Shown here: in pieces, positions 2,424 through 26,379 of the stretch
Layout: each line of letters begins with the position of its first letter
How positions within the stretch are numbered: the first letter of the stretch is position 1
Virus record (IMG/VR): IMGVR_UViG_2883187667_000001
Span: 22,140 to 86,139 of that record
Origin: a virus
Lineage: Duplodnaviria > Caudoviricetes
Direction: 5' to 3' (one strand)
DNA: 64,000 nucleotides
Notes under the pieces: model-generated
Database searches by the model: none
What the model saw: only the letters and a program-made list of their open reading frames with translations
What the model was told of the DNA's origin: nothing
Position numbers and translations under genes: made by a program

Positions 2424-3963
2424 TCCGCGTTACCTCGACTTTGTAGACAAGTACCACGCCGATCCCCTGCGTTTTGCTGTCAGCGTATGTGGCATGTCGC
2501 CGTCTCAGGACCAGGAAGACCTCCTGCATGCCATCACCCCGGCCAACGCCAAGGTATCGGTCGTATCAGGCACATCGACAGGAAAAACGGCTGGTTTTGG
2601 GCGAATTGCCCTATGGCACCTGCTCTGTCACCCCGTTGCGGTTTACGAAGGAAAGATCGAGATAGGTTCGAACACCTACATCGGCGCGCCGCGAATCAAT
2701 CAGGTGTCCGATGGCGTATGGAAGGAGATGAACGACGTTTATCTTGCCATCGCCAGCGGGCCGTATGCCTGGATCAACGACTATTACGAAATCAACAAGA
2801 CGCGCGTGGTGGTCAAGGGGTTCGAGGATCAGTGGTTTATTGCCCAGGTCGCCATGCAACAAGGTCAGTCGATTGGCGTGGCCGGCAAGCACCGGTATTG
2901 GCAGCTCATTATCATCGACGAAGCCGCCGGCGTGTCGGATGATCACTTCGATGTGATTGATGGCACCCAGACCCAGCCCGGAAACAGAACGCTGATGGCG
3001 TCTCAGGGAGTCAAGAATGCCGGGCGTTTTTATGAGTCACACAACAACCTTTCCAAGGCCAATGGCGGCTCATGGACGGCGCTGCGCTTCAGTTCCGAGC
3101 GGTCGCCATTCGTTACGCGGCAATGGCTGAAGGATCGCGCCGATGAAACCGGTGGGCGGAAGTCCATAGAATACCGTATTCGCGTGCTTGGTCAGTTTGC
3201 CGAGGATTCAGGTAGCATTCTGCTGACGCGCGTGGATCTTGAAAAAGCGTTTAACCGTGGCAGCATCATCGGCGATGACGAGCCTTACGGCATACTGGTG
3301 TTGGGCGACGTGGGCATGGGCGAATACCGCGACGATTCAGTTGCAGTCATCGCCAAGGTAATCGGATATGGCGATTTCGGGCCGGACGCAAGGCGCGTCG
3401 AATACATTGAAATACCCTACTGCACCAACAGCAAAAACGAGATTATTTTCGCGGGTGACTTGGTAAATCTGGTTGGCAAACTGTCGAACGCTACGCTGCT
3501 GGTCGACAACGGCGGCGTCGGCGCCACGGTCAACAAACTGATTGAGGCCTCCGGCGTCCCAGTGGTAAAGATCAACTGGGGCAGTCCATGCTTCAAGAAG
3601 GAGTACAAGGACCGGTTTTACAATCGCCGGGCCTGCGCCATGGTCCGCTTCCGCGATGCCATCAAATCCGGGCGCGTATCGTTCCGAATGGAGATAGACA
3701 AGCGGCTGAAGGAAAAGATTCTGCTACAGGGTTCCCGCCTGCCCTACCACTTCGCGGAAGCCGGTGGGCTGCGCTATGTCATGGAGAAAAAGGAAGTGAT
3801 GCGCGCCAATGGCATCAAGTCGCCGGACATCATCGACGCGAAGTCGTTCGCGTTTCTGGAGGACGCGGTTTACATGGCGCGCGAGGGAGACGGTGTCAAT
3901 TCTGCCGGCGTGGTGGCTTCGGCTCTGGCAGAGGCTGAAGAGATGTTTGCGGATTTGGTTTAG
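2395..3963 (+). CDS. pacB: Terminase large subunit (P1 PacB-like)
   Basis: Walker A VSGTSTGKT, Walker B IIIDEA, nuclease LGDVG...DDSV and C-terminal GIKSPD motifs. Confidence 0.9.
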   Translation: MMPKTLIFHDPRYLDFVDKYHADPLRFAVSVCGMSPSQDQEDLLHAITPANAKVSVVSGTSTGKTAGFGRIALWHLLCHPVAVYEGKIEIGSNTYIGAPRINQVSDGVWKEMNDVYLAIASGPYAWINDYYEINKTRVVVKGFEDQWFIAQVAMQQGQSIGVAGKHRYWQLIIIDEAAGVSDDHFDVIDGTQTQPGNRTLMASQGVKNAGRFYESHNNLSKANGGSWTALRFSSERSPFVTRQWLKDRADETGGRKSIEYRIRVLGQFAEDSGSILLTRVDLEKAFNRGSIIGDDEPYGILVLGDVGMGEYRDDSVAVIAKVIGYGDFGPDARRVEYIEIPYCTNSKNEIIFAGDLVNLVGKLSNATLLVDNGGVGATVNKLIEASGVPVVKINWGSPCFKKEYKDRFYNRRACAMVRFRDAIKSGRVSFRMEIDKRLKEKILLQGSRLPYHFAEAGGLRYVMEKKEVMRANGIKSPDIIDAKSFAFLEDAVYMAREGDGVNSAGVVASALAEAEEMFADLV

Positions 3964-3970
3964 AGAAAAC

Positions 3971-4678
3971 ATGAGGATAGTAGGAAAATCTATGCACGAT
4001 ATTTTAAGGCGAACCATTTATTCACTGAACGATCGGAAAGAAAAACTCGCACGCTTCAGTTTGAAGGCCGCAGGACTCAATGACGACCCATCGTTTCTCG
4101 CAATTGGATTGCGGGAATATCTTCCAACAAAAAAACTTACCGTACAACAGGCCGTAGCCTTATCCGTAGGGATTAATCCCAAGCATGAGTTCAGCACCCT
4201 TACATACGATGAACGCGACGTTATCCAATACGCTACCGGCGACGCTCAGGCGCGTTTAAAGGAGTTTTTCGAGCGTTGCAAGCTGATTCGGGATCACCTG
4301 CACGAGCGATCTATCCCCGTACTGGAAGTTTCTCCGAATTATCTGTTCCACAAGGTCATGCTTGATGATGTATTGTCATGGGTTGAAACAATTGTCGAAC
4401 AGAAACCTAAAATTGGCGTAACTAAAGCAACAACAAAGCCCCCTGGAAAAATGTCTGATGTCGAGTTAAGTCAAGCCTACGGAATGACGGTTTACATGGC
4501 AAACAATCTTCTGATAATTTTTCTGGAAGCGGACAGACTAAGTATTGATCTTAACGCACCGCTCCGTGGTGAGCGCGCCAAACTACAGCAGAACGTCATA
4601 AAACATCTTAGCGTAGGTAAATTCAATCGTGCCTGGAAATCCGGACTAGAATGCGGGGTCATCGCTCAAGGAACGTGA
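3971..4678 (+). CDS. Hypothetical protein (lower-GC, moron-like)
   Basis: Long ORF after pacB; ATG at 3971; no recognised motif. Confidence 0.55.
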   Translation: MRIVGKSMHDILRRTIYSLNDRKEKLARFSLKAAGLNDDPSFLAIGLREYLPTKKLTVQQAVALSVGINPKHEFSTLTYDERDVIQYATGDAQARLKEFFERCKLIRDHLHERSIPVLEVSPNYLFHKVMLDDVLSWVETIVEQKPKIGVTKATTKPPGKMSDVELSQAYGMTVYMANNLLIIFLEADRLSIDLNAPLRGERAKLQQNVIKHLSVGKFNRAWKSGLECGVIAQGT

Positions 4679-4912: not shown

Positions 4913-5749
4913 ATGGAAACCCCTTTAATCGTTTACAACCTGGGCGATCGCGGACGCAAGCACCGGGGAAAGGAACGAAACTTCAACCTGCGCAAGCTGG
5001 CGGCGGCCATCAACAGCGACGAGACTCAGGAGCGCGTCAAGAACCGCGACATGCCGGGTTTCTACGGGCACCTGTTCCGCGCGCGCTTTGGCCTGAACCC
5101 ACCGGAAACCGTCATCGTCGGCGGCAATGTCGTGCGGCTGGACCCTGCTTTCGTAACCACCCACCTGCGCGCCCTGCCCGATGGCACCATTGAACACAAG
5201 GCCGAATTTCTCAATACCGACGCCGGACAACTGGCGCAGAAGGCCTATGCCAGCAAGTTCGGAGGATTCTCCTCGGCAATTGACCAGATAAAGCCGGAAT
5301 TCTGTGGATTCGATTATGTGTTCGAGCCCAATTTCAACAACAACCGCGGCTACAGCGTGGCGCTGGATTCTGTTTCGGTCGCTGAACGCGATGCCGTGTT
5401 CGACAGCATTATCGTGGCCGAATACAAAGACCAGATGACCGGCTGCCTGCGCCTGCTCGACAGCGTGTCCAAGGCGCATGAGTTGGCCCTGCAGTCGGTG
5501 GACCATCTTCGCCAGGAGAACGAGGAGTTGATGTCCATGCTGGCTGTGGGTCGAGACGAGGCGGCGCTCGATAGCGTTCCCATTCTCCCGCTGTCGGTTT
5601 CTCGCGCTCCCGCGCAACGCATCATTTCCGACATCGCCTCATTTCGCAACGCGCGCCTACCCCGCTTTGTCGAGCCCAAGGGCGACGAATCAGGGCAGAT
5701 GGAGCGCGCCTACGACAGATTATTAAACCGTTTCGGCATTGGAGGATAA
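4913..5749 (+). CDS. Prohead protease / head processing protein (P1 Pro-like)
   Basis: GFYGHLFRARFG...EHKAEFL...GGFSSAI...GFDYVFEPNF prohead-protease pattern. Confidence 0.75.
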   Translation: METPLIVYNLGDRGRKHRGKERNFNLRKLAAAINSDETQERVKNRDMPGFYGHLFRARFGLNPPETVIVGGNVVRLDPAFVTTHLRALPDGTIEHKAEFLNTDAGQLAQKAYASKFGGFSSAIDQIKPEFCGFDYVFEPNFNNNRGYSVALDSVSVAERDAVFDSIIVAEYKDQMTGCLRLLDSVSKAHELALQSVDHLRQENEELMSMLAVGRDEAALDSVPILPLSVSRAPAQRIISDIASFRNARLPRFVEPKGDESGQMERAYDRLLNRFGIGG

Positions 5750-12733: not shown

Positions 12734-15700
12734 ATGTCACTATTAGAAAAGCTTTTCGGCGCAATCGCCACAAGAAGGAGCGCGCTTGATGCCGCCGCCC
12801 CGCCCTGCCCCGTCTTGGATGCCGTTACCAACCCAATTGAGCAACTGAAGCTGACCACCGAGCTGGGAAAAGTACGCAAGGAAATTGCTGGGCTGGGTGA
12901 TTCGGCAATGGACGCCATGAAGCGCCTTGGGCTTACTACCCGGCTTGGCAAGATTCGCATGGAGCTGGGCGGACAACAGAATCAAGCTCTGGCTTTGGAG
13001 CCAGATACAGCGCCCCAGCAACCTGAACCAATTCAGGAAGCCCATGACGCCCCCGTGGAGACCGTTCAATTCGGCCTGCAAGCAAGTGGCGTCAAGACCC
13101 GTGAAAAGATCAACGCGCAGGTGTCGGCCATAACCGACCAGATTCGCGCCGGCAGAAACCCTGCGACGCTGACCGACGATGAAATAGCGCTGCTCAAGCA
13201 ATATTCCGGCAAGGGTGGGTTGACGATCAACTCCCAGCACGAGTATTACACCCCGCCCCATGTTGCCGAAGGGGTGTGGGACGCGCTTAAAGCCAATGGC
13301 TTTGAAAATGGCAACGCTCTGGAACCGGCCACCGGCGCCGGTGTATTTCTGGCTACCAAGCCCAGCGGCGTCATTGCCACAGGTACCGAGATCGACCAGA
13401 CCAGCGCCACTGTTGCGCAGATCTTGAACCCTGGGGACGTGGTATCTAACCAGTCATTCGAGTATCTGGCCGCGTCATCGCCCGATAACAGCTTTGACGC
13501 CGTGATCGGAAACGTACCCTTTGGCAACGCCCGAGGCCCGAGCGCGCACGATGACCCGCCCTACAAATCCGAAAAGCTGATCGAGCGCTATTTCGTGCAG
13601 CGCGTGATTGACAAGGTTAGGCCGGGCGGACTCATCTGCCTGGTTGTGCCGGTGAATATCATTCAGGCAAAGGGCAAGGCTTGGGAGAAGTTTCGTATTG
13701 CCATCAGCAAGAAAGCCGAATTCCTGGGCGGTCACAAGCTGCCATCCAAGACGTTTTCGAAGCAAGGCACCGATGTCGTGGTCGACGTGCTGGTGATGCG
13801 CAAGCATGGCGCCGATTTTCTCGCGCAAGTGGATAACCTGCCGTTCGACACATTGACCGCGGCCAACGTGGTTTGGGCGGAGTTCATCGAGGGCCGCTAC
13901 TGGCAAGGCGAAGGAAAGCGCTACATCAAGGGCGAGTTCGTACCCAAAGACCCGACCAAGTTCCGCGACTCGGACAAGGTTATCGCCGGCGAAAACATGA
14001 CCGATGAGGCGCTAAAGCGCGCGCTTGCGGTTAAATTCCACTCTCGCATTGATTGGGAGATGCTGGATAGCGCCGAACCGATTGTCCGCAACTACATAGA
14101 CGGCGACCGCAAGGAGATCAATGGCATTGATTACGAAATGCAGGGCGGCGCGTGGGTAAAGATAGCCTACACCGAAAGCAAAACCGAGCTGGATACGACT
14201 ATTTACGGCGTTGACTCGTTGGACGCGCTGGAGTCCATCATGCAATCGGATTCCGGCATCCTGTCGTTGGGCTGGGGAAATATCGAAGCGGCATGCGATG
14301 CGTTTCCCAACCTCGTGCCGCAACATGTCAAGGACGCGCTAAATTTTTCTCGCTTGCAGTCGGATGACAACCAATGGCGGGCATTTCGCGGCGCGGTAAT
14401 CGGCGCCAGGATCGAGTCGTACCTGAACAGCGGCAGCGATGACGCAAGTGATCTGGCCGAACTGAAAGAATTGATCCTGCATGAGATCGTTAAATACGGA
14501 CACCCCAACAGCGTTACCGGCCTGACCGTGGCCGGCAAGGAATCGAAGCGTTTAGGATTGTTCATCAACTCGGTGGATGAGGCGGGTAACTTCTCGCCGC
14601 TACTGGAAACCGGGACCATTCGCCAGGAAACAGCGGAATTTAATTCCGCCGATCCGGTATCGATCGTCACCTATCTGTTTGAGCAGAACCAGGACCCGGT
14701 AGAACTCAGTACGGTGCTGTCGATGTACGACGGAGAAGCCATGATGGAAGACCTGGGCGACATCACCAAAATACCGGGGCTGGCCGTGTCGCCCGATGGT
14801 TTCATCTACCCATTCGATCAATATTGCTCGGGCGATGTATTCCCCAAACTCCGGGCAATGCGCGAAGCGATGCTATCGGAGAAAGATCCGCGCATTATCG
14901 AGCAATACAAGCGCCAGATCGAAAGCATCGACGCCAAGCGCCGCAAAACGCCGACCGAAGACATTACCTTCCGCATGAGGCAAAAGTGGTTCGATCAGAA
15001 AAACTACGTGATTGAATTCCTGCATGCCAATGGGTTTAAGGTTACGATTCAGTACGACGAAGAACGTGGTGAATTCGTTTCCCGGGGAACCGGTGGCGGA
15101 CTGATACCGCAAATCGTCAATTACCTGAACGAAAAGCCGGTAATGGGCGGCGTCAAGGTCTCGGATTACAAGGACGCCATCAAGGCGCTGGAGGATCAAT
15201 TCGACGCCTTCATGAAGTCGCACCCGAACAGCGAAGACCTGACCAATCAGTACAATGAAAAGTTTAACGGCTATGTCGATTTCAGCTACTCCTGTAGCGA
15301 CCTGGGGCTGACCAATCTGGGCGACAGAATTAAGCCGCATACCTACCAGAATGAAGCCATTCGCCGACTGTCGCGTGAAGGAAAAGGGATTCTTGGTTTC
15401 GACGTGGGCCTGGGAAAAACCTTTACCTCCCTGGCGCTGCAAGCCTACAACGAGCAGATGGGGCGTTCCAAGCGCACCTGCATTGTTGTTCCTGACTCGG
15501 TGTTGGCAAACTGGTATCACGAACACAAGGCGTTCTATAAGGATACCTCACGCATGCTGGTTGTCGGCATGTCGCCGAAAACAAACAAGGATGGCACTGC
15601 GCAACGTGAGGCGATTGTCGACGAACAAGGCAATCCGAAGCTGCTCAACGGAGAACCCATATACCAGGATGTCTTGACCAAGGACGACGCGGAAACCATC

Positions 15701-18700
15701 TGGGCGAAAATGCACAGCATTCCGCAGTCCGACTTGTCGCTGGTGATCATGTCGCATTCCCGCTTCGGCATGATACCGGTCAAGCAGCAGACCAAAAAGA
15801 AATACACCGAAGAAATGCTGTCGCGGGAGCTGATGAGCGCCGGGGATGCCGACAAGCTGATGTCCGCAAATCCGGGCAAGCTGTCATATGCCGACGCGCA
15901 GAATCAAGACCGCATGGAGCAGAAATACTCCGACGAAGGCACGCGCAAACAGGACGCATACCCGTATTTCGAGGACATGGGGTTTGATACCGTCATGCCC
16001 GATGAGGCGCATTTTTATAAAAACGCCTTCAAGCCGGGCAAGGAAGCGAGCCGCATCGCTTATCTGCCAACGCCCGACCCATCGCAACGCGCCATCGACC
16101 TGTCGTTGAAACTGGCGCATATCCGCGAAATGAACGGCGGGCGCGGCGTTGTGTTGCTGACGGCCACCCCGGTTACCAACAGCCCGCTTGAAATCTACAA
16201 CATGTTGTCATTCCTGATTCCGGCAGAGGAATTCGAGCAGTTTGGCGTCTACACACCCGATGATTTCGTGCGCGTGTTCGCCGATGTGCAACAGATCGAG
16301 AAGCTCAAGGTTTCCGGAGACGTGGGTAACGTCGACGCGATGGTCGGCTTCCAGAATCTGGATGGCCTGCGTTCGCTGTTCCACAAGTACGCGATTATTA
16401 AAAATGCCGAGGACGTAAACCTTCCCCTCCCCGGCATCGAAGAAACCCAATCAACCGTTGAGCTATCCGAGGAACAGCAGGGTATCTATGTGGCGCTGCG
16501 CGCCGAGGCCAAGACGGCATCGTCTCCCAAGAAAGAGGAGCGTGAAACGGTACGACCGCTGTTCTCTATCATCCGCGACATGGACAGAACCACCACCGAT
16601 CTGGACATGTATTACAAGCAGATCACCTTCATCTTCGCGCCCGCGCACAAGGAAGCGCTGGAAAAAGCGCTGGCGATGATGCCGAAAACGGTACAGCGCA
16701 AGGAGTACGACGCCGACAAGGAAAGAGATGTGGTCATGACGGTGCCGTTAGAGTACACGCTCACCGAAAAAGACGGCAAACTGGTGGTGGTCATGACCGA
16801 CGCCGGCGAAGAGGACATGGTGGCCGCCATGCAGAAGGTCGGCATCCCGGAAGATGAAGTGGCGCACCCGATCACGCCAAAATATGCCGAACTGCTGAAG
16901 AACCTGAAAAAGGAACTGGATGTTGGCGGAAAGCAGCTAATTTTCATCGAGGAAAAAACCCAGCACCGGAAGCTGGCCCGGGTCATCGTGCATCACCTGC
17001 CCATTACGCTGGAGAACATCGGCATTATCAACGCCACGGATGCCTCCGGCGAAAAGCTACAGCGCATTTCAGACAGCTACAACGCCGGCAAGATCAAGAT
17101 TGTTATCGCCAACAAGAAAGCGGAGGTCGGCGTCAACCTGCAAAAAGGCACGACGGCGATTCATCACCTGACGTTCCCCTGGGTTCCGGCCAGCATGCAG
17201 CAGCGCAATGGCCGCGGCGTCCGGCAAGGCAACACTGCGGCGACGGTCAATATCTACTACTACATAGGGAAAGGATCGTTCGATCTGTTCCGCCTGAACC
17301 TGATCAATAAGAAAGGCAACTGGATTAACGATGTGCTGCGCGGCACCGAATCGAACATGGAATCCAAGGGCGACGGCCACCTGTCGGCGGAGGATGTCAT
17401 GGTGCTGCTGTCCGATAACCCGGAAGAGGCCAAGGCGCGCATGGAGGAAGCAAAAGCCAAGCGCGAAGCCGCAAAACGGGCTAAATCCGACAAAGCCATG
17501 GTCATCAACCTGAACCAGCTCATAGAGGCGCGGCGCAAACTCGCATTGCTGGATGGCTGGAAATCGGACGAAAAGACCAAGATAGAAGCGGAGCTGGCGA
17601 AACTGGCGGCGCGCATTGCCGCGCTTGAGGAAGATGATGGCGAGGAAGCCCGTAAAGACCGCTCCGATAGTAGGCGCAAGCAGTCCCTGCAGCAAAAAAA
17701 GCTCGATACCCTGGACGCCCGTTATCTGGCTATCGAGGAAAGCGCATCGGCGACAGTGAAACAAAAAACCGTATTCCTGAAAGCCAAGGCGGCAGCAGGC
17801 GAACTACCCTTTGATGCGGGCGCTGTCGACAATCCGGAATCGGTGCTGGTTACCAACGATGGCCGGATAATAAAGCCGGGCATGGTGTTCGACATTAAAG
17901 ACGCGAAGTACGACCGTGACCGCAAATTGACCAAAGGCCTAAATCTGGTTGAAGCCATTGACGCATCGGCGCGCACCATCACCTTCAAGCCCAAGAGAGA
18001 AAATTACAGCTCGCGGCCCATCAGTCTGAACGATCTGCACAACTACGAGCTGAAGCCGGTATCCATGACGATTGAGGAATGGGACTTGGCGAACAAACTC
18101 GCCAATAACCTAACGCTGAAGGATGTCATCGGGTTGGGGTTTGCCACCTACGACAAGTTCAAGGATCAAATCAAACTGGCCTATAGGGAATACTATATCG
18201 CCGATCTGGGGGACGGCACGGTAACACTGACCAGGGAAAGCTCCAGTTATCGTTCCCTGGTGGATGCCCGCTTCGTCTGGCCGGATGGCGGCAGCGAGGC
18301 CATTAAGCGCCAAGTGGTCAAGGATTACTACCGCAACATCACTGTTTATGGCACGGACTACGGCGGCCCGATTATGGAAACCCTGTTCGGCGAGGATTGG
18401 AATGCCGCCATTCAGCAATATGCAGAAATGGCGACGCAGGAAGACGTGTTGCGTCAGGCGCAAGCCATTTTTGAGGCCGACGTTCAATCCAGGGGCATGG
18501 ATGAATACCAGTTCATCGAGCGCAACAAGTGGTTCGTAGCCAATAATTGGCGCGAATATACTGCAAAGATACCAGGCGACAATGTACAGGAGATAATGGA
18601 TTGGGTGCGAACATTCATGGCGGACAAGATTGCGGCCTACGAAGCCGAGTCCCGGAGACGCCAGGACGAGGCCAACCAGAAAGCCGCCGAAGCGATTAAA

Positions 18701-19216
18701 TCCAGCCCGGACTACAAAGAGATTCCAGAGGGTATTGCGCTAAAGCTCTCGGAAAAAGGCATCACCGCCCTGTACAACACCGAATCGGTCTACATTAAGC
18801 GGAGCAATTGGCCGGCCTTCTCGCTGCTGCTGTTGCAGGACTCGAATGGCAAGCAAGGATTGCTGTACGCCGCCAAGGAGCGGCTGAAAAGCGCCTATGG
18901 CGCGCAATTCGCCGCCGATATATCGACAAAGTTCAGCGGCGCATGGTGGTATATGCCCTCCTCCCATAAGCTCGACGATATCGTTTCCGTTATACTCAAC
19001 GATCAGGACGCGCCGGTGATCGAGACCAACAGGGACGCTCCGGAAAAGCTGAAAGTTCCTGCCGACAAAATAGCCGTTGGCGATGAACTGAATGGATTTG
19101 TCGTCCGATCGCTGGGTAAAACCTGGGCGGCTAAGGAATATGAAATCAGCGCCGTCAAGCGGGATTCGGGCTTCGATATCGAAGAAGGCGACTTGATCCA
19201 ATACGCGAGATTTTAA
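12734..19216 (+). CDS. darB: DarB-like N6-adenine methyltransferase plus SNF2-family helicase
   Basis: YYTP, LEPATGAGVF, VIGNVPFG (MTase); FDVGLGKT, DEAH, LTATPVTNSPLE, QRNGRGVRQGN (SF2 helicase); 2160 aa. Confidence 0.85.
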   Translation: MSLLEKLFGAIATRRSALDAAAPPCPVLDAVTNPIEQLKLTTELGKVRKEIAGLGDSAMDAMKRLGLTTRLGKIRMELGGQQNQALALEPDTAPQQPEPIQEAHDAPVETVQFGLQASGVKTREKINAQVSAITDQIRAGRNPATLTDDEIALLKQYSGKGGLTINSQHEYYTPPHVAEGVWDALKANGFENGNALEPATGAGVFLATKPSGVIATGTEIDQTSATVAQILNPGDVVSNQSFEYLAASSPDNSFDAVIGNVPFGNARGPSAHDDPPYKSEKLIERYFVQRVIDKVRPGGLICLVVPVNIIQAKGKAWEKFRIAISKKAEFLGGHKLPSKTFSKQGTDVVVDVLVMRKHGADFLAQVDNLPFDTLTAANVVWAEFIEGRYWQGEGKRYIKGEFVPKDPTKFRDSDKVIAGENMTDEALKRALAVKFHSRIDWEMLDSAEPIVRNYIDGDRKEINGIDYEMQGGAWVKIAYTESKTELDTTIYGVDSLDALESIMQSDSGILSLGWGNIEAACDAFPNLVPQHVKDALNFSRLQSDDNQWRAFRGAVIGARIESYLNSGSDDASDLAELKELILHEIVKYGHPNSVTGLTVAGKESKRLGLFINSVDEAGNFSPLLETGTIRQETAEFNSADPVSIVTYLFEQNQDPVELSTVLSMYDGEAMMEDLGDITKIPGLAVSPDGFIYPFDQYCSGDVFPKLRAMREAMLSEKDPRIIEQYKRQIESIDAKRRKTPTEDITFRMRQKWFDQKNYVIEFLHANGFKVTIQYDEERGEFVSRGTGGGLIPQIVNYLNEKPVMGGVKVSDYKDAIKALEDQFDAFMKSHPNSEDLTNQYNEKFNGYVDFSYSCSDLGLTNLGDRIKPHTYQNEAIRRLSREGKGILGFDVGLGKTFTSLALQAYNEQMGRSKRTCIVVPDSVLANWYHEHKAFYKDTSRMLVVGMSPKTNKDGTAQREAIVDEQGNPKLLNGEPIYQDVLTKDDAETIWAKMHSIPQSDLSLVIMSHSRFGMIPVKQQTKKKYTEEMLSRELMSAGDADKLMSANPGKLSYADAQNQDRMEQKYSDEGTRKQDAYPYFEDMGFDTVMPDEAHFYKNAFKPGKEASRIAYLPTPDPSQRAIDLSLKLAHIREMNGGRGVVLLTATPVTNSPLEIYNMLSFLIPAEEFEQFGVYTPDDFVRVFADVQQIEKLKVSGDVGNVDAMVGFQNLDGLRSLFHKYAIIKNAEDVNLPLPGIEETQSTVELSEEQQGIYVALRAEAKTASSPKKEERETVRPLFSIIRDMDRTTTDLDMYYKQITFIFAPAHKEALEKALAMMPKTVQRKEYDADKERDVVMTVPLEYTLTEKDGKLVVVMTDAGEEDMVAAMQKVGIPEDEVAHPITPKYAELLKNLKKELDVGGKQLIFIEEKTQHRKLARVIVHHLPITLENIGIINATDASGEKLQRISDSYNAGKIKIVIANKKAEVGVNLQKGTTAIHHLTFPWVPASMQQRNGRGVRQGNTAATVNIYYYIGKGSFDLFRLNLINKKGNWINDVLRGTESNMESKGDGHLSAEDVMVLLSDNPEEAKARMEEAKAKREAAKRAKSDKAMVINLNQLIEARRKLALLDGWKSDEKTKIEAELAKLAARIAALEEDDGEEARKDRSDSRRKQSLQQKKLDTLDARYLAIEESASATVKQKTVFLKAKAAAGELPFDAGAVDNPESVLVTNDGRIIKPGMVFDIKDAKYDRDRKLTKGLNLVEAIDASARTITFKPKRENYSSRPISLNDLHNYELKPVSMTIEEWDLANKLANNLTLKDVIGLGFATYDKFKDQIKLAYREYYIADLGDGTVTLTRESSSYRSLVDARFVWPDGGSEAIKRQVVKDYYRNITVYGTDYGGPIMETLFGEDWNAAIQQYAEMATQEDVLRQAQAIFEADVQSRGMDEYQFIERNKWFVANNWREYTAKIPGDNVQEIMDWVRTFMADKIAAYEAESRRRQDEANQKAAEAIKSSPDYKEIPEGIALKLSEKGITALYNTESVYIKRSNWPAFSLLLLQDSNGKQGLLYAAKERLKSAYGAQFAADISTKFSGAWWYMPSSHKLDDIVSVILNDQDAPVIETNRDAPEKLKVPADKIAVGDELNGFVVRSLGKTWAAKEYEISAVKRDSGFDIEEGDLIQYARF

Positions 19217-19218
19217 GC

Positions 19219-19632
19219 ATGAGACTCTACAGCAAAGACGATTTACAAGACGCCCTGTTCGAAGCGCTGAACAGCAATAAAAGCTCGGCTGAGTTCGTCA
19301 AGAAATATGTCACCAATCTGGGCAAAATCATCAAGAAAAGGCCGCAGCATTACCGCTATTTCGGTCCGTACTGGTGGGCGCTGAAGTCGATCATGCTCAA
19401 GTACGAAGTACCCGGCATTGATGATTTTGTAGATCTGGAGTGGCTGGAAAAAATCAATCAGGCGCTGACCGGCGATGACTATGTCTGCGTGGCGTCCTGG
19501 GCCATGCAGGAAAGCCGGTTCGGCGGTCTGGAACTACCCACCAACACCGTGATGCTTGAAGACGCCGAGGGCAATATGACCGAATGCGTCACCATAGACC
19601 CGTTTCTTGAGGCGCTGATTAAAAGCGGTTGA
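19219..19632 (+). CDS. Small protein after darB (possible Ulx-like chaperone)
   Basis: Position and size similar to P1 ulx; no direct motif evidence. Confidence 0.45.
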   Translation: MRLYSKDDLQDALFEALNSNKSSAEFVKKYVTNLGKIIKKRPQHYRYFGPYWWALKSIMLKYEVPGIDDFVDLEWLEKINQALTGDDYVCVASWAMQESRFGGLELPTNTVMLEDAEGNMTECVTIDPFLEALIKSG

Positions 19633-19640
19633 TTTTGGAC

Positions 19641-20036
19641 TCACTTACCCATCGCTAAACGGGCGGCATCCGCCAGAAATCCACTCCGGGTAGAGTGATG
19701 GGCGCGGGCGTAATCGTCAATCTTCGCCAGCAGTCGGCGCGGCAGGGTGATATTAATTTTTTCGGAACGCCCATCGAAACGCGCGGTATCTACGTCGACC
19801 AAGGCCCATACGCCGCCCTCGAAGTCAGGGTTTAGCCTATGCTCGGCGATCGGTCGCGGAACCGGAATTTCCTCATCGTCGTCGGTCATGCCTTCAAGGT
19901 GCAGGTCAATAGCTTCCGCCACACTGTTCAGGGCGTCGTCGAAGGTGTCGCCCGCCGAAAAACATCCGGGAAGATCGGGAACGGTAACGCCAAAACGCAC
20001 GCCGTCATCGGTATGCAATACCACGGGAAAGCGCAT
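19641..20036 (-). CDS. hicB: HicB antitoxin
   Basis: FGVTVPDLPGCFSAGDT...KINITLPRRLLAKID (HicB core plus RHH). Confidence 0.9.
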   Translation of the reverse strand: MRFPVVLHTDDGVRFGVTVPDLPGCFSAGDTFDDALNSVAEAIDLHLEGMTDDDEEIPVPRPIAEHRLNPDFEGGVWALVDVDTARFDGRSEKINITLPRRLLAKIDDYARAHHSTRSGFLADAARLAMGK

Positions 20037-20045
20037 AATAAACTC

Positions 20046-20246
20046 CTATTTCCACCCCGCCTGTTTCTCGATGCTGCGTAGCGCACCGGCAGGGATGTCG
20101 CTGTCAGGGTGCTTTACAGTCACCCGGCCCGGATTTGTCGGATGCTTGAATTGATGGTGCGAACCTCTGACTCTATCCAGATACCAGCCTTCCGACTCCA
20201 GGCGCTTGATGACTTGCTTGCTGTCCCTGGTGGTTATTATAACCAC
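20046..20246 (-). CDS. hicA: HicA toxin (start codon uncertain, possibly lost)
   Basis: GWYLDRVRGSHHQFKHP...VTV HicA motif; the expected ATG position reads AGG at 20228-20226. Confidence 0.8.
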   Translation of the reverse strand: MVIITTRDSKQVIKRLESEGWYLDRVRGSHHQFKHPTNPGRVTVKHPDSDIPAGALRSIEKQAGWK

Positions 20247-20263
20247 CAGTCAGTAATTGACAA
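20227..20263 (-). promoter_or_regulatory. hicAB sigma70 promoter with palindromic operator
   Basis: Minus strand TTGTCA-N16-TATAAT; 11-bp perfect inverted repeat CTGGTGGTTAT-N-ATAACCACCAG (20227-20249) overlaps the -10. Confidence 0.65.
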
Positions 20264-20503
20264 TGTATTTGACAGGGACGCGGCTACCGGAAGATTACCA
20301 CTGTCAACCTGTCAATTTTTACAGTTACGCCGATGCACGGCGCAGGGCTATAATGCCGGTGAGCAATCAGGAAACATAAGCCGTGCAGGGACAGCCGCTT
20401 CAACCGTTTACCGCAATAATCACAATAGCCGCCGATATGAGGCAAAGTTTTGCGTCATATAGGTGGGCGAATTTTTCGTTATGCCCCTTAGGGATTTGCA
20501 CGA

Positions 20504-21352
20504 ATGCAAACTATAGATGAAGCCCTGATCGAAAAATTCAAACAAATCCTTTGTGAGCCCCCCTCCCCGGGACGCCAGAAGGAGCAGGTTGTACAGGACT
20601 TTCTTGAGCAACACACAGAGCTGATTCCGATTCCGAACCGCTTGAACCACCATCTCCATTTTCAATCTGTAGTGTCCAAGTTCCCACTTGGTACTGAACT
20701 GACTACAGACTACGTCTACATCACAAAAAGTTCTGACGTTTGGAGAGTAACCCTTGTCGAATTGGAGTCTCCGGATAAGCGCATCTTTACCAGTGACGTT
20801 AAGAAAACGAATACTTCAGCAGAGTTCAATGCAGCGTTGAATCAGGTAAGAAGTTGGAAACACTACCTTGATGAAAACAAAGCCGAAGTAATTCGTCGCC
20901 TTGACCCGTTGCTACAACCAATAAACATGAGGCGGAACCCCATCGAGTTTCACTTCCAACTCATCATTGGCCGATCCGAAGACAAAAACCTAAGCGTGGA
21001 ACGGAAGAAACACTTTAGAGGACTCATTGATGAAACTGGGATCGACCTTTTAACATTTGACCAACTGATTGACTGGTACAGAAACGATCAGCGCTATAAG
21101 AAGCTTGTGCTGCGCCTCACGGGCGCGCAATACGCTTTCAAGCATATGCATTTCGAGCCGACACAAATTCTTTCGTATGTGGGGCCTGACCGTCTATCCC
21201 TAAGCTCCGACGAGTTTGGGCGCTTAAAGGCTGCTGGATACGAAATGGACAAGTGGAGCAAGGGTGACTTGCTCACCTACAACGTCAAATTTGCAGAATC
21301 GACAAGAAACCAAGAGCTAAATAAAGGACGGCACTCTTTTTACTCTAAATAA
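20504..21352 (+). CDS. sduA: Shedu-type (DUF4263) anti-phage nuclease, minimal form
   Basis: EQVVQDFLEQH...FPLG...DYV...LVELESP...ALNQVRSW...LIIGRS...LLTFDQL. Confidence 0.8.
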   Translation: MQTIDEALIEKFKQILCEPPSPGRQKEQVVQDFLEQHTELIPIPNRLNHHLHFQSVVSKFPLGTELTTDYVYITKSSDVWRVTLVELESPDKRIFTSDVKKTNTSAEFNAALNQVRSWKHYLDENKAEVIRRLDPLLQPINMRRNPIEFHFQLIIGRSEDKNLSVERKKHFRGLIDETGIDLLTFDQLIDWYRNDQRYKKLVLRLTGAQYAFKHMHFEPTQILSYVGPDRLSLSSDEFGRLKAAGYEMDKWSKGDLLTYNVKFAESTRNQELNKGRHSFYSK

Positions 21353-21393
21353 AGGTGTATAATTTACTTTAGTCGCAACAGGCCATCATTCAA

Positions 21394-22176
21394 ATGAGCT
21401 GTTTAGCAATGAAGACCAAGGAAAGATCTATGTCTCACGATAATACAATCAAAAATTACATGAAGTTTCTTTGGGGACCTCACTTAGCGGAGATTGTTTT
21501 TGAGTCGCCCAGCCGACAAGCAGTATCTAGCTCCGTTCAAAATGCTTCCGTAATTTCCGGGTTTAGTATTGCAGCTATAGCCATAATTTTGGCTACCACC
21601 CCTCTAACCTCACCTTTATTGATCACTCTTGTTTATTTATTTCTAGCATTAATGCTACTATTTAAATGCGGCGATTGCTTGACCAATTCACTGCATTTTG
21701 ATGACCCCATAACCAACCAGAAAGAACTAAAGTTTTATCGCAGGCAGGTTTACTGGGGATGGAGGCATTATAATCTGGCCATAATAATAATTATTGCATC
21801 GATAGCATTTTTTTCCATTATAAAAATACAAGACCAAAATATACCAAGCCACCTAAAGCTATCCTTGTACACTGCAATTACCTTGGTTTTCGCATGGTGG
21901 GCATCATTTTGGTTTGTGGATTTATGGAAAACAATTATTTTCATTGTAAAATGTGAAGACAAGAATTACAGCAACTACTCGACAGAGCAAAAGAAGTTAA
22001 TTGAGCGCAATATTCTTTTCAAGTTAATCTTGTATTCCGGTATAACTGTAACTTTAACTATATTATTAACTCTTTTGCCTTTTGGTTTTTTTTCTTCATG
22101 TGTAGATGTGCAGGCATTATTAATTACATTGATATTGTTTGCAGTCCTTCGAGCGATAGTAATAGATACATTTTGA
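21394..22176 (+). CDS. AT-rich multi-pass membrane protein, unknown function
   Basis: About six hydrophobic segments; alternative start at 21430. Confidence 0.65.
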   Translation: MSCLAMKTKERSMSHDNTIKNYMKFLWGPHLAEIVFESPSRQAVSSSVQNASVISGFSIAAIAIILATTPLTSPLLITLVYLFLALMLLFKCGDCLTNSLHFDDPITNQKELKFYRRQVYWGWRHYNLAIIIIIASIAFFSIIKIQDQNIPSHLKLSLYTAITLVFAWWASFWFVDLWKTIIFIVKCEDKNYSNYSTEQKKLIERNILFKLILYSGITVTLTILLTLLPFGFFSSCVDVQALLITLILFAVLRAIVIDTF

Positions 22177-22295
22177 CCAGTCACTATGCTTGAGAGATTT
22201 ATGATCTACGCTGGATTCTGCCTTGTTTTCTGTCTTGGATTAACAAAAAAAGCACCCACTTCGGCGCTAGACTCAGTCTCGTTTGTTGTGCCACG

Positions 22296-22382
22296 GCCTA
22301 ACGAAGCGTTCGAAGCGGACGCGCTTGACGATCAGCCTACTTACCACAGTTTTTGCGCGTACCGCTCAACTTTGCGTTGGTC
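22296..22382 (+). other. Integron attC-like recombination site 1
   Basis: GCCTAAC-GAAGCG-TTCGAAGCGGACGCGC...GCGCGTACCGCTCAA-CTTTGC-GTTGGTC: RYYYAAC...GTT ends with imperfect inverted L boxes. Confidence 0.75.
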
Positions 22383-22405
22383 ATCTTGATACTGAGGCGC
22401 GAACG

Positions 22406-22897
22406 ATGAGCGAATTTGATACGCGGAAGAAGGCTCTACTAGAACCATTATTCATCGAAGCTGGCAACGCATTGATGGATTGCCAGACTTTCGAGTACGG
22501 CCTAACGCTTCTGCTCTTTCATCTTGCCAGACTCGATAGCATAACTCTCGACCCTCAAAAGGTTGCTCTAATTTTGGAGAACCAAGACAAGAAAACGGCA
22601 GGCCAGCTAATTGCCATGCTGAAGAAAAAGGCCAACGTAAGCGACGGTATCGAAAAAGCCTTGGAAGTTGCTCTCGCTTCACGCAACACACTTATCCATC
22701 GCATATTGATAGACAACGCAGAGAAACTTCCCCAAGCAGAAACGAGGGCATCGCTGCTTAAGGAAATTCGAAGCCTGCGCGCTAATGTTCAAAAGGCAGA
22801 CAAGAAGTTGCGCCCGTTCATCCACGCATTTGGTCTCGAACTCGATGGCTTTGACAATCGCCAATTCGAAGCCGAAGCAAAGGCAACGTTTACGTGA
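22406..22897 (+). CDS. Cassette-borne hypothetical protein (HEPN-like RxxxxH)
   Basis: Single ORF between two attC-like sites; KKTAGQLI...SRNTLIH resembles the RxxxxH motif. Confidence 0.6.
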   Translation: MSEFDTRKKALLEPLFIEAGNALMDCQTFEYGLTLLLFHLARLDSITLDPQKVALILENQDKKTAGQLIAMLKKKANVSDGIEKALEVALASRNTLIHRILIDNAEKLPQAETRASLLKEIRSLRANVQKADKKLRPFIHAFGLELDGFDNRQFEAEAKATFT

Positions 22898-22904
22898 ACC
22901 CGAT

Positions 22905-22970
22905 GCCCAACCCTTCAGTCGAGAGGGGCTGCGCAAAAGCGCGCAGCCCCTCACTTTTACGTTGTTGGGC
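22905..22970 (+). other. Integron attC-like recombination site 2
   Basis: GCCCAAC...GAGGGGCTGCGC-AAAAGC-GCGCAGCCCCTC...GTTGGGC; outer GATGCCCAAC/GTTGGGCATC are perfectly complementary. Confidence 0.85.
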
Positions 22971-22973
22971 ATC

Positions 22974-23900
22974 ATGATGAGGATCGTGCCATTTATTCTT
23001 GGCTTGGCGCTAGATATTGCACTCAAGCGCCTGACGCGGCCGCATACGGTCTACTCGAAGCTTGCGATAACAGCACTGCTCATCAGTGGCGGAGCCTTCA
23101 TCACCCCATTTTGGCAACAAGCCGTTGAAGGTCTCATTGCGCCCTTGGACAATCCAGGATGCACCGGCCCACTTCCATCTATCGCATCAGGTTCGATTTT
23201 TCTCTTGTTATCCTTTTTGTTTGGATCTATATCGCAAAGGCATTCAACGCAACAACGGGAATCACTTGTAGACACAAAATCGCTCAGTGGTCCTATCTCA
23301 ATTGGGCAGGCGCAAGTTTATTGCTACTGCGGGTCGGTATTGGCAATGTCAAACATTGATGTGGTCATTACCTCAGAGAATAGAGATCTACATCTTGGAA
23401 GTATTAACGGCACTTCTGTTTCAGGAAGAATTAGGCGACTTGCCGCTTCATATAACAGCGATGGAACACTAAGCGCCGACCATCTGCTTAATCACACCAT
23501 CCAATGGAAATCGAATCAGCATCACAAGGGACCATACAGATTGGGGCAATGCATAGTCTCTCCCCCATTTAATGCCAAACGTCGCGGCATCAAATCCATA
23601 GTTCATGCAATCACACTTGAAAAACGTGACTCAGGATTAAATATCGTAGAGGAATCTGCGAACCGAGAAGTAATCGATTTTGTTATCAAACATTGCAACG
23701 TACAACAGTATTCTTCCTTTTTTCTACCAATATTTGGACTCGGTAGTGGTGGCCTATCTCGAGATGATGCGATCTCCAGAACATTAACCCCTCTCATTGC
23801 CAAGCTTCGTACCACGGCTGCGCCCCTTTCTGTTTATGTGGGAACCTATCGTCTCTCTGATGCAGCAATTGCTTCGACATTTTTGCTGAGAGCGCAATGA
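22974..23900 (+). CDS. Transmembrane plus Macro-domain protein (ThsA type II-like architecture)
   Basis: N-terminal hydrophobic helices, then GSVLAMSNIDVVITSEN...GTSVSGRI...IVHAIT...LPIFGLGSGGL Macro pattern. Confidence 0.7.
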   Translation: MMRIVPFILGLALDIALKRLTRPHTVYSKLAITALLISGGAFITPFWQQAVEGLIAPLDNPGCTGPLPSIASGSIFLLLSFLFGSISQRHSTQQRESLVDTKSLSGPISIGQAQVYCYCGSVLAMSNIDVVITSENRDLHLGSINGTSVSGRIRRLAASYNSDGTLSADHLLNHTIQWKSNQHHKGPYRLGQCIVSPPFNAKRRGIKSIVHAITLEKRDSGLNIVEESANREVIDFVIKHCNVQQYSSFFLPIFGLGSGGLSRDDAISRTLTPLIAKLRTTAAPLSVYVGTYRLSDAAIASTFLLRAQ

Positions 23901-24391
23901 CCCCCCATCTCGCAGAGGATGTTGCATCGCTCTTATGTCGGCTAGATGAGCGCAGGACAGGAGCAATTATAGGTTACACAAGCGGAGTCTTTGATCTTTT
24001 TCATCAAGGGCATCTCAACTATCTAAACGCATGCAAACTGGCTGTGGATGTATTGGTTGTCGGTGTAGACGCCGATATCTTGGTTCGGATTAGAAAGGGC
24101 AGTCATCGTGCTTACGAAAAATGCAACACAAGGGTCGCCCATGTACAAGAGACAGGCCTTGTAGACGAGTTATTTATCAAGACGAATTCCTCCGACGAGA
24201 TAATTCCCATCATTCGACCGCATAGATACTTTATTCCAAGCAACCGCCAAATCAGCGCTCTGCGATCCCAACTTCTAAACGACTTATCAGTACGACTTGA
24301 TGTGCTTCCTTATACAAGTGGGGTATCTACAACGAAAATGGCACGGCTAATTGGAATTTCTTCGGATAGCAGTGACTTTGAAAATAAGTGA
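23897..24391 (+). CDS. HIGH-superfamily cytidylyl/adenylyltransferase
   Basis: YTSGVFDLFHQGHLNYL...LVVGVD...LPYTSGVSTT (TagD/RfaE-II-like); ATGA overlap with the Macro gene. Confidence 0.85.
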   Translation: MTPHLAEDVASLLCRLDERRTGAIIGYTSGVFDLFHQGHLNYLNACKLAVDVLVVGVDADILVRIRKGSHRAYEKCNTRVAHVQETGLVDELFIKTNSSDEIIPIIRPHRYFIPSNRQISALRSQLLNDLSVRLDVLPYTSGVSTTKMARLIGISSDSSDFENK

Positions 24392-24399
24392 ATTCGATC

Positions 24400-24445
24400 G
24401 ATGCCCAACCCATCATTCCACCGGACTTGCGCGAAAAACCACGCA
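24400..24445 (+). other. Truncated attC-like site 3 (left half)
   Basis: GATGCCCAACCCATCATTCCACCGGACTTGCGCGAAAAACCACGCA; no right arm or GTTRRRY; GATGCCCAAC complements GTTGGGCATC at the cassette start. Confidence 0.65.
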
Positions 24446-24494
24446 TGAAGCCCAATATCATCGCCACCTGACAAGCTTATCGCTAACTCAACTT

Positions 24495-24519
24495 AAGCCC
24501 GCCCCACGCGGGCTTTTTT
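24495..24519 (+). terminator. Rho-independent terminator
   Basis: AAGCCCGC-CCCAC-GCGGGCTT followed by a T run. Confidence 0.75.
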
Positions 24520-24564
24520 GCGCCCGCAAAAAATAACCACCCCGCACCCCGCCCCCACCAAAAC

Positions 24565-24605
24565 CGGAAAACAGCGCAAAAACCGCCCTACCCTCACCCA
24601 AAACT
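24565..24605 (+). promoter_or_regulatory. Putative late promoter (CGGAAAAC-N27-AAAACT)
   Basis: 7-copy motif upstream of the major capsid gene; near-identical to the copy at 33231. Confidence 0.65.
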
Positions 24606-24663
24606 ATCACCTGAACCTCGGCGCGTCGCCGAACACAGTCTGATAACTTTTGGCGAGATCGAT

Positions 24664-26379
24664 ATGCCCAATAAAATCAAGCACCAATACTCCCGTAAAT
24701 CAACCGCCGAGGTGGATGCGTTCACCCAGGGGTTGCGGGAAAACGCTTTTAACCAGCAGGGAACATTCGACTCTGCGGCAACCTACGACTTCCTGTCTAA
24801 TGTCACCAACCAAAACACAGGAATCAAGGTTCCCGACAACCTGCAAGCGGTTTACGATGAAGTCGGCGAGAAGGGGAGCGATGTCGTTACCCGAGCCATT
24901 CTCGATGGCATCAATAACTATGAAACAGCGCACGGCTGCTCGGTTCCGGCTGACATTCTGGAGCAGGCGATACATGCCGCTTACGGAACCACGAATGAGG
25001 CGCGCCGAATAAATCAGCTTCCGGCGCTGGACTCGGCGAACAGCAACCACATGGACGAGCTGAGCCTGCAGCCCAATCGCGCCGTTGTCGCCATTCTTTC
25101 GATAATGGCGGAGGCGATCCCGTTCGCGCATTACCTGCCGGCGGACATCGGTTCGAATGAAGCGCGTCTGGCGATCATGCAACATCAGGCCGGCAGCACC
25201 TACGGCGGCTATCTCGAAAACGCCATTCTGGATGGGATCGCCAGCGGCGAAGTCTTTATCACCTCGTCGCGGATTCATAAACTGGATATCAACAGTCAGG
25301 GCGCGGCTACCGCGAAACTGACGACAATCCAAACAGACGATGAGCATTGCGATCAAAGCGACACGGCGGTAGCGCCAAAGCTGTTGCGCGGCACAACTAT
25401 CGTCTACGTGAACGGCAAGGTGGCCGCGCGCGAAGTCGATAACACCGGTAGCGGCAATTCGCCCATCAGCGGTACCGCGATCGTTGCGGGAACCAGCTAC
25501 GCCATATCGGGAACCATTAATTCCGATACCGGCGTGGTGACGCTGGCGACCACGCCAGCTATCCCCAACACCAGCGATGTATCGGTCATTGTCGAAGGCT
25601 TTATCGACTATGAACGGAGCCCTGAGCTGACGCCGCGGATTATAACGGCGGTCAACATTTTCAAGCTGCACGCCAGCCCCTGGCGCGTGTTCACGCAACA
25701 GACCATCGACAGCCGTACCCAGATGTCGAACGAATTGGGGCTGGACCCTTACGGCGAAAGCGTGATCGGCATTCAGCAGCAATTCGCCAACGAGCGCCAT
25801 TACAAGGTGCTGGCCATGGCGCGGCGCTTGGCGGTCAACAACCACACGCAATTCGATTTCAATTGGGCGACCAATAATGGCGGCGAAAGCCTGCAAAAGA
25901 CCCGCTCTCAAATCCTACAGGACTTCGCCACCCCGCTGGGCGTCGCCGATCAGCAAATGGCGAACGACACCATGAACCACGGTATCACCCACTTGTACGT
26001 GGGTAAGTTCATGGCGTCCATGCTGTTGTCGATGCCGAGCGACATTTTCGTGCCGTCAGGGCTACCCGCTCGTCCGGGCATTTACCGCGTTGGGCGTCTG
26101 TTTGGCCGTTTCGATGTGTATTACGCGCCCAAGGGCGTGAAGGAAGCGATCGTCAATGGCACGCAAACCGCTCAGGTTTTGTGCATCGGACGCGCAACCG
26201 ACGTCACGCGCAACCCGTTTGTGCTGGGCGACGCCGTGGCGCCCCAGGTTATACCGTTGGCGGTCAATTCCGACATGAAAACCGGGGCCGCGTTCTACGC
26301 GCGCAACTTTACCTCAGTCAATCCGCACTGCCCGTCTTCCATGGGCTGCGCGATGATCGACGTCTACAACCTGACCTAA
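24664..26379 (+). CDS. Major capsid protein (P1 gp23-like)
   Basis: 571 aa, first gene of the operon, followed by the sheath gene; size and processing-site position similar to P1 gp23. Confidence 0.75.
   Translation: MPNKIKHQYSRKSTAEVDAFTQGLRENAFNQQGTFDSAATYDFLSNVTNQNTGIKVPDNLQAVYDEVGEKGSDVVTRAILDGINNYETAHGCSVPADILEQAIHAAYGTTNEARRINQLPALDSANSNHMDELSLQPNRAVVAILSIMAEAIPFAHYLPADIGSNEARLAIMQHQAGSTYGGYLENAILDGIASGEVFITSSRIHKLDINSQGAATAKLTTIQTDDEHCDQSDTAVAPKLLRGTTIVYVNGKVAAREVDNTGSGNSPISGTAIVAGTSYAISGTINSDTGVVTLATTPAIPNTSDVSVIVEGFIDYERSPELTPRIITAVNIFKLHASPWRVFTQQTIDSRTQMSNELGLDPYGESVIGIQQQFANERHYKVLAMARRLAVNNHTQFDFNWATNNGGESLQKTRSQILQDFATPLGVADQQMANDTMNHGITHLYVGKFMASMLLSMPSDIFVPSGLPARPGIYRVGRLFGRFDVYYAPKGVKEAIVNGTQTAQVLCIGRATDVTRNPFVLGDAVAPQVIPLAVNSDMKTGAAFYARNFTSVNPHCPSSMGCAMIDVYNLT

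Follow-up and report, generated by a model that had tools for sequence, protein, structure and literature searches.

The stretch of DNA analysed here comprises 64,000 nucleotides (nt) of the caudoviral IMG/VR record IMGVR_UViG_2883187667_000001 (positions 22,140 to 86,139 of that record; hereafter the window, to which positions refer unless a genome or locus is named), and it very likely carries a fragment of a cassette array of the chromosomal-integron type, amounting to an attC cluster without an integron integrase (CALIN), in an accessory region between the DarB-like and capsid genes of a prophage. From left to right, the array consists of a Shedu defence gene with a membrane-protein gene, attC1, a HEPN-like gene, attC2, a gene for a macro-domain membrane protein with a nucleotidyltransferase gene, and half of attC3. 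A CALIN-like cluster without integrase at this position had been proposed in a first-pass annotation of the window, and both its phage flanks and its sites are confirmed. The sites are attC by their structure, by an independent covariance model and by homology to the attC sites beside the integron integrase gene (intI) of the host, and sequence comparison finds the genes between them again elsewhere, in units bounded by attC.

22296 to 22382, + strand: attC1, complete, 87 nt, R'' GCCTAAC and R' GTTGGTC (27.2 bits with covariance model R1, rough E-value 2e-5)
22905 to 22970, + strand: attC2, complete, 66 nt, R'' GCCCAAC and R' GTTGGGC (39.1 bits with R1, rough E-value 9.9e-9)
24403 to 24446, + strand: attC3, 5' half only (R'' GCCCAAC, L'' and loop), from the top 5'-arm matrix score in the window and blastn to host sites

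Identification of the attC sites

An attC site is bounded by an inverse core, R'', of the form RYYYAAC and a core, R', of the form GTTRRRY, and has the shape of an imperfect palindrome in which an L''/L' stem, an unpaired spacer at the centre and additional unpaired bases on the R''-L'' arm are expected. On the coding strand of the cassettes R'' precedes R' in attC1 and attC2, and attC3 has R'' only. In its accessible part, the survey of Qi et al. (2023, PMC9892861) gives the attC core as G/TTRRRY and sets two attC sites as the minimum for a CALIN. The window holds two complete sites, 522 nt apart, and a half-site, and the nearest intI above the cut-off lies 1,267,882 nt away. It does not hold a complete integron, which would have intI, attI and a cassette promoter beside the array, as the integrase model TIGR02249 finds no match inside it; this agrees with the first-pass annotation, which had seen no intI here, and the genome has a single TIGR02249 match above the cut-off, at G000:C1:3623502-3624446 (G000 being the genome that contains the window).

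I built the covariance model, R1, from 22 attC sites beside intI in three related genomes (G009, G011 and G019), with zero sequence from G000. Integron integrases were sought in 40 relatives and in G000 itself, 30 of the 41 genomes giving a match at E<=1e-60 and 28 a match above the family cut-off. The source of R1 was 14 cassette-side stretches of intI of up to 20 kb each; a core-plus-fold filter gave sites in four of 13 scanned stretches, and these four yielded the 22 training sites. On a hand-written attC structure 92.5% of the cells of the training alignment are paired, with double-sided changes in 10 of the 21 pairs; none of 500 shuffles reaches the observed score, and no slid register comes close.

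With filters off, R1 returns 22 matches at E<=10 in the whole 64-kb window, headed by attC2 and attC1. The third-ranked match is the reverse-strand echo of attC2, and the next independent place scores 14.2 bits (E 0.08). The complete pair is thus far above chance, and all three sites lie in one orientation where the first-pass annotation had placed them; it had also suggested scoring by a covariance model as a check, and R1 recovers both complete sites. In the R1 alignments both fit the full 21-pair structure, and the bulged bases of the R''-L'' arm, C and A as read on the top strand, become G and T on the bottom one. When both strands of the window are scored with a weight matrix that represents the 5' arm in these foreign sites, positions 24403, 22296 and 22905 come first to third (scores 22.5, 17.6 and 16.0, respectively; the next is 12.5).

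For attC3, blastn of 24403-24445 gives 90.7% and 87.8% identity to two host attC sites. The site is truncated just after its loop, because this homology ends after approximately 24446, and with the 3' arm missing, the earlier description of a truncated third site holds. Folding of the bottom strands, likewise suggested as a check, bears out attC2 (-27.8 kcal/mol, z -7.7) and neither of the others: attC3, which has no R1 score, does not fold (z +0.3), and attC1 has a z of -0.7.

The decamers that were quoted as cassette boundaries are real: GATGCCCAAC stands at 22902 and 24400 with its complement at 22964-22973, and GTTGGTCATC is found at the end of attC1. Their reported self-complementarity is exact for cassette B, whose start matches R'' of attC3 at 10/10 positions, and has one mismatch for cassette A, whose start pairs with R'' of attC2 at 9/10 positions; such complementarity of cassette start and R'' is predicted if cassettes pass through circular intermediates. 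At its 3' end (22956-22970), attC2 reads ACGTTGTTGGGC, with a GTT triplet directly before the GTTGGGC core. Aligned to host sites, the first GTT stands at the expected core position, and 3 nt may have been duplicated here at the point of crossover.

Two further observations concern hairpins. A minus-strand terminator-like hairpin with a T-run is present at 22251-22268, between the membrane-protein gene and attC1, where there is no minus-strand gene. An element present in five copies has genes for a transposase of the IS91 family (Y2_Tnp) and for a tyrosine recombinase with 84 bits to the integron-integrase model; one copy, at L067 2783-5101, corresponds to G000:C1:2397958-2400276, 2.8 kb to the right of the window. 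Its 63-nt terminal hairpin is unrelated to attC and scores 17.8-18.9 bits with R1, so R1 can be fooled at low scores, and such hairpins are a likely class of false positives in attC searches.

Cassette cargo

The open reading frames (ORFs) of the island, all five open and all on the + strand, are listed below with the possible left boundary.

20478 to 20484, + strand: possible left cassette boundary with core GTTATGC, 20 nt before the Shedu start, proposed by likeness to the relative G061 only
20504 to 21352, + strand: Shedu defence nuclease SduA, 282 amino acids (aa) (PADLOC PDLC00378, 299.8 bits over 4-269; Pfam SduA_C, 85.3 bits, cut-off 27)
21394 to 22176, + strand: protein of 260 aa with hydrophobic stretches, from its translation, gene of 36% GC, between Shedu and attC1
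22406 to 22897, + strand: cassette A gene, helical HEPN-like protein of 163 aa (invariant R-N-x3-H motif)
22974 to 23900, + strand: cassette B gene 1, protein of 308 aa with three N-terminal helices and a macro domain (homologues named macro domain-containing, PF01661)
23897 to 24391, + strand: cassette B gene 2, adenylyl/cytidylyltransferase-like protein of 164 aa (Pfam CTP_transf_like, 32.3 bits; TIGR00125, 36.5 bits, cut-off 27.7)

Between 20.4 and 24.5 kb the GC content is 33-49%. The ORFs had been called AT-rich, which is correct only in relative terms: the island averages 44.7% GC and lies below the phage flanks, at approximately 54%.

In cassette B the start of the second gene overlaps the stop of the first. 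The 308-aa protein is modelled by AlphaFold with a pLDDT of 85.8, and Foldseek finds macro domains at an E-value of 8e-10 with a TM-score of approximately 0.8 on the target; its three N-terminal helices are read, from the model, as putative membrane anchors. Homologues of up to 84% identity occur in distant lineages (in records named Hydrogenophaga, Pseudomonas and Vibrio), many of them annotated as macro domain proteins. The 164-aa protein reaches 63 bits, below the cut-off, with RfaE domain II, and the nearest proteins are sugar-phosphate adenylyltransferases. Genes for the macro-domain protein and the transferase are adjacent in 20 of 22 metagenome loci (L072-L093), the other two being cut by contig ends. 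In locus L075 an attC site flanks the pair exactly on each side, at 3915-3980 and 5386-5443, within a long array of 13 R1-scored attC sites on the + strand, and an attC abuts the pair in L074, L078 and L082 as well. The other loci have no R1 match at E<=0.1 beside the pair, save for one on the opposite strand in L083, and many of the loci without a match are short or may carry other attC types. The macro protein has no homologue in 300 other genomes of the order, and tblastn finds no match among 72,556 plasmid or 50,697 phage records. Neither protein of cassette B is matched by a PADLOC model, and a text search of the literature returned no paper joining macro domain, cytidylyltransferase and anti-phage.

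Cassette A is the sole cassette still lying between two complete sites. The criterion taken for a HEPN domain was a helical bundle with an R-x4-6-H motif. The 163-aa protein is helical in its AlphaFold model (pLDDT 89.9), and R93, N94 and H98 are invariant in 21/21 aligned sequences. Its comparison with HEPN chains (Csm6, sacsin and AF0298) gives Z-scores of 6.1-7.3, inside the noise range of helical bundles, and Foldseek finds zero matches at E<=0.001. There is no homologue in the 300 other genomes of the order. In the host itself a paralogue of 28% identity ends 27 nt before a host attC. A contig of 606 nt from a groundwater metagenome (run X1) matches 22369-22931 with 14 differences, its homology starting beside R' of attC1, and in many contigs of the same run homology is confined to the attC2 block (22905-22964) and is lost on either side of it; these contigs show presence only.

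In the leftmost third, the first gene encodes an SduA protein with the DUF4263 nuclease domain by which Shedu is recognised. The 260-aa protein has no match in Pfam, PADLOC or NCBIfam. In G061, a genome of the same family, a Shedu homologue of 70% identity has an attC of 35.5 bits 22 nt downstream and is preceded by GTTATAC and a leader similar to the leader with GTTATGC in the window. I considered a remnant attC arm at 20469-20484 and rejected it: with the 16-nt 3'-arm matrix it scores 9.3, eighth in the window, and 422 sites in the genome score as high. R1 is blank at these positions, its best nearby value being 5.4 bits at 20258-20327. The left third is a cassette only by analogy, because no complete attC precedes Shedu or splits it from the membrane-protein gene.

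The prophage and the host integron

The window corresponds to G000:C1:2331176-2395175 on the + strand of a genome of methanotroph type in a single contig (4.70 Mb, 54% GC), and the array sits in a large integrated prophage of myovirus type that encodes DarA and DarB.

12734 to 19216, + strand: left phage flank, DarB-like methyltransferase/helicase of 2160 aa (phrog_1685, 1627 bits; phrog_11801, 1264 bits; DarB-like phrog_10089, 364.6 bits)
19641 to 20246, - strand: toxin-antitoxin pair of hicB (19641-20036; HicB_lk_antitox in Pfam, 167 bits) and a hicA-like gene (20046-20246; HicA-like in PADLOC, a weak 15.6 bits)
24664 to 26379, + strand: right phage flank, major capsid protein (phrog_1014, 413.6 bits)

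To the left of the island are a terminase-like gene, tail genes and the genes for a 1265-aa protein, with matches to lysozyme and virion proteins, DarB-like ones among them, and for the 2160-aa DarB-like protein. The hicB/hicA-like pair has phage-like GC, lies outside the attC-bounded part and has a minus-strand promoter-like site beside it (20263-20236, 11/12). To the right follow capsid, sheath, portal, tape-measure-like and baseplate genes, the capsid gene having 70% nucleotide identity with the gene annotated as major capsid in Xanthomonas phage Rb1. The prophage has genes for packaging, head, tail and baseplate as well as for the Dar proteins. Beyond the window there are phage replication and Rha-like genes to the left, and a chromosomal porin gene and citrate synthase gene just to the right.

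No + strand promoter-like site is found upstream of the array, and no further attC in the 15 kb to the left. A stretch of 28 nt occurs twice in the prophage, at 20287-20314 and 49592-49619, in copies that are 96% identical and share the 24-nt core AAGATTACCACTGTCAACCTGTCA. One copy lies approximately 190 nt before Shedu and the other just before an ORF starting at 49623/49658, and the repeat could serve the phage as an operator or promoter and might drive the island too. Among the genes of the tail region there is also a transposase gene (51170-52213, - strand; phrog_4646, 295 bits), which may belong to an insertion sequence (IS) that damaged the phage.

Relatives of the capsid gene are found in metagenome-assembled genomes titled Methylococcaceae and in IMG/VR contigs, with other gene orders, and in one of 63 other genomes of the family. 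Nine loci with such relatives (63-68% aa identity) have different genes upstream of the capsid gene, and their 85,372 bases contain no attC at E<0.01, with two weak matches at one place in L057. For the C-terminus of the DarB-like protein, IMG/VR gives just a fragment of 31% identity, and the 300 further genomes of the order give no relative.

The host integron (G000:C1:3623502-3632053; loci L001 and L063) looks complete, with intI, an attI-like core and at least four cassettes. The intI gene (3623502-3624446) has an open frame of 331 aa and 495 bits with TIGR02249 (cut-off 265), and its product carries the integron-specific patch and the catalytic motifs, as read by eye. The cassettes next to it, after an attI-like GTTGGGC, have attC at 3625212 (46.1 bits), 3629407 and 3631994, and one more attC, at approximately 3626283, is cut by an IS3-type element at approximately 3626325; another attC of this integron carries a group II intron. 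Integrase-less clusters of attC occur elsewhere in the host chromosome, at 2.096-2.102 Mb and 3.222-3.230 Mb. The sites of the window belong to the same sequence families as those beside host intI, a comparison that the first-pass annotation had asked for: attC1 shares 83-94% identity with four host sites, one of which is the IS-cut attC of the host integron, and attC2 resembles the first attC of that integron, with stem changes that are compensating as read from the alignment. When the island is compared with the host genome by blastn, only attC pieces match, and the cassette genes are single in the genome save for the paralogue of the 163-aa gene.

Identical group II introns split four host attC at the G of R', at 2099073, 3629467, 3229496(-) and 3222316(-) (Rfam RF02001, 120-132 bits, plus RF01998 and RF00029). 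Their orientation follows the attC top strand, unlike that of attC-targeting introns as usually described, which is the opposite. Three host copies of the attC1 family, near 765520, 2101475 and 3723781, end in ...ATACATGGAC and not in a GTTRRRY core, and this shared foreign end suggests that another element was inserted at R'.

Origin of the array and comparison with known systems

Several results weigh against the reading of the locus as a captured integron fragment. The bottom strand of attC1 folds no better than shuffled sequence and its R'' and R' have two mismatches; the minimum-energy fold is the inner stem only, as the in-array R' GTTGGTC pairs poorly with R'' GCCTAAC. R1 covers one attC type and its E-values are rough, and by R1 there is no complete attC before Shedu and none between Shedu and the membrane-protein gene. 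By blastn, the cassette genes are missing from the present arrays of the host. No closely related phage with the same darB-capsid junction turned up in the searched genomes or in IMG/VR, so no variability at this place is shown.

The fragment would derive from an array of this or a related lineage. That it had been captured from an array of this very host, as first proposed, is borne out with respect to the attC families, which are shared with the host integron; the remainder is an inference, because only these families are shared and the arrays that the host has at present contain none of the cassette genes. Entry into the phage was probably by break-and-join rather than by clean integrase insertion, given that the break in attC3 falls in its loop and that a complete site is missing both upstream of Shedu and between Shedu and the membrane-protein gene. 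Host IntI, acting in trans on folded bottom strands, is predicted to be able to excise cassette A (attC1 x attC2) and to insert new cassettes at attC1 or attC2, with cassette B and the Shedu segment remaining fixed. What makes such recombination in trans possible is a host IntI of full length that bears the integron-specific patch; the reshuffling by host IntI foreseen in the first-pass annotation would nevertheless be limited, as only cassette A lies between two complete sites. In the lysogen, the island genes probably act as a predicted defence against other phages.

Alternatively, the array may be a dead relic in a decaying prophage, without present cassette traffic. This is the strongest of the competing explanations, though less probable than not: attC3 is truncated, attC1 pairs poorly, a transposase gene lies inside the prophage and the single sequencing run listed as covering part of the stretch is of DNA, with no RNA run listed, but all five island ORFs are open, attC2 is perfect, and the genes for packaging, head, tail and baseplate are present. 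That run is a small-share metagenome, and the gaps in its cover of the stretch carry no meaning.

It is somewhat unlikely that the cassettes were put in by IntI, singly or as one multi-cassette circle, at a secondary GTT-type site of the phage, with arms deleted later. The putative left boundary, CG/TTATGC, reads as an integrase junction would, and the host IntI looks intact. However, that boundary has no statistical support, as the 422 equally high sites in the genome indicate, and attC3 lacks its whole 3' arm, with no G/TT junction past the break. Treating the two array ends as halves of one attC also failed (duplex rank 8692 of 42638), which counts against such an insertion.

That the sites are ordinary terminators or repetitive extragenic palindrome (REP)-like sequences merely resembling attC is very improbable and largely refuted: the attC2 stem followed by ACTTTTACGT is listed as terminator-like, an Rfam scan of 19000-26000 gives sub-threshold noise only with no match to the attC family, and the IS91-family hairpin obtains a score with R1, but the two complete sites score far above that false-positive level, they share 83-94% identity with sites beside host intI and in host arrays, four host sites of these families have group II introns at the R' end, and the homology blocks of run X1 stop exactly at R'' and at the G of R'.

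A bolder version of the integron-fragment reading is that attC sites which are still live give the phage a docking point for IntI-mediated exchange of anti-phage cassettes with the chromosomal integron, and that the macro and transferase pair is an undescribed signalling defence; I consider it improbable as a whole. If it were true, a temperate phage would be a vehicle for the integron defence pool. The locus joins two ideas, integron cassettes as an anti-phage reservoir and prophages as carriers of such systems, and phage cassettes with attC sites that fit the host integron machinery would let defence genes pass by a concrete route between chromosomal platform and virus. Since host IntI and phage-borne attC share one genome, they form a clean test pair, and the conserved two-gene cassette of macro and transferase genes is worth testing for defence.

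The locus belongs to a known kind, as integrons and CALINs of phages were already described in 2023. In the accessible part of their paper, Qi et al. (PMC9892861) report a screen of 10,705 phage genomes with three complete integrons, one In0 element and 17 CALINs; the finds include prophages with pieces of the host sedentary integron, and phage attC recombine with IntI1. The present CALIN, which may overlap with their list of 17, resembles theirs in consisting of co-oriented attC and ORFs without integrase in a phage or prophage. Its attC type is that of the host sedentary chromosomal integron, as is the case for the Vibrio anguillarum prophage described there, and it is flanked by phage structural genes like the cluster of Shewanella prophage M16-3. 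It differs from those CALINs, as far as the accessible text describes them, in its methanotroph-type host, its large DarA/DarB prophage, its defence-type cargo and its half-site end, and also in that the prophage is 1.27 Mb from the host integron, neither in nor beside it.

With regard to the cargo, Darracq et al. (bioRxiv 10.1101/2024.07.02.601686), in the accessible part of their text, name Shedu as the second most frequent defence system in sedentary chromosomal integrons and describe HEPN-only cassettes. The Shedu and HEPN-like genes of the present array are like those cassettes, but here they are in a phage and not in a chromosomal platform. The macro and nucleotidyltransferase pair goes unmentioned in that part of the text, where the words "macro", "cytidylyltransferase" and "nucleotidyltransferase" do not occur. 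Among known systems, the pair is most readily set beside type II Thoeris, whose effector ThsA combines transmembrane and macro domains: cassette B has N-terminal helices and a macro domain in one protein, encoded next to a gene for a small enzyme. By analogy, an ADP-sugar-type signal from the transferase, sensed by the membrane macro-domain effector, would parallel that system. However, the partner in cassette B is adenylyl/cytidylyltransferase-like and not a TIR protein (ThsB), and with a CTP_transf_like neighbour and no PADLOC match, the pair is not a member of type II Thoeris but at most Thoeris-like. The novelty of the locus lies in its host and phage group, in its cargo of defence-type genes and in the recurrent cassette of macro and transferase genes.

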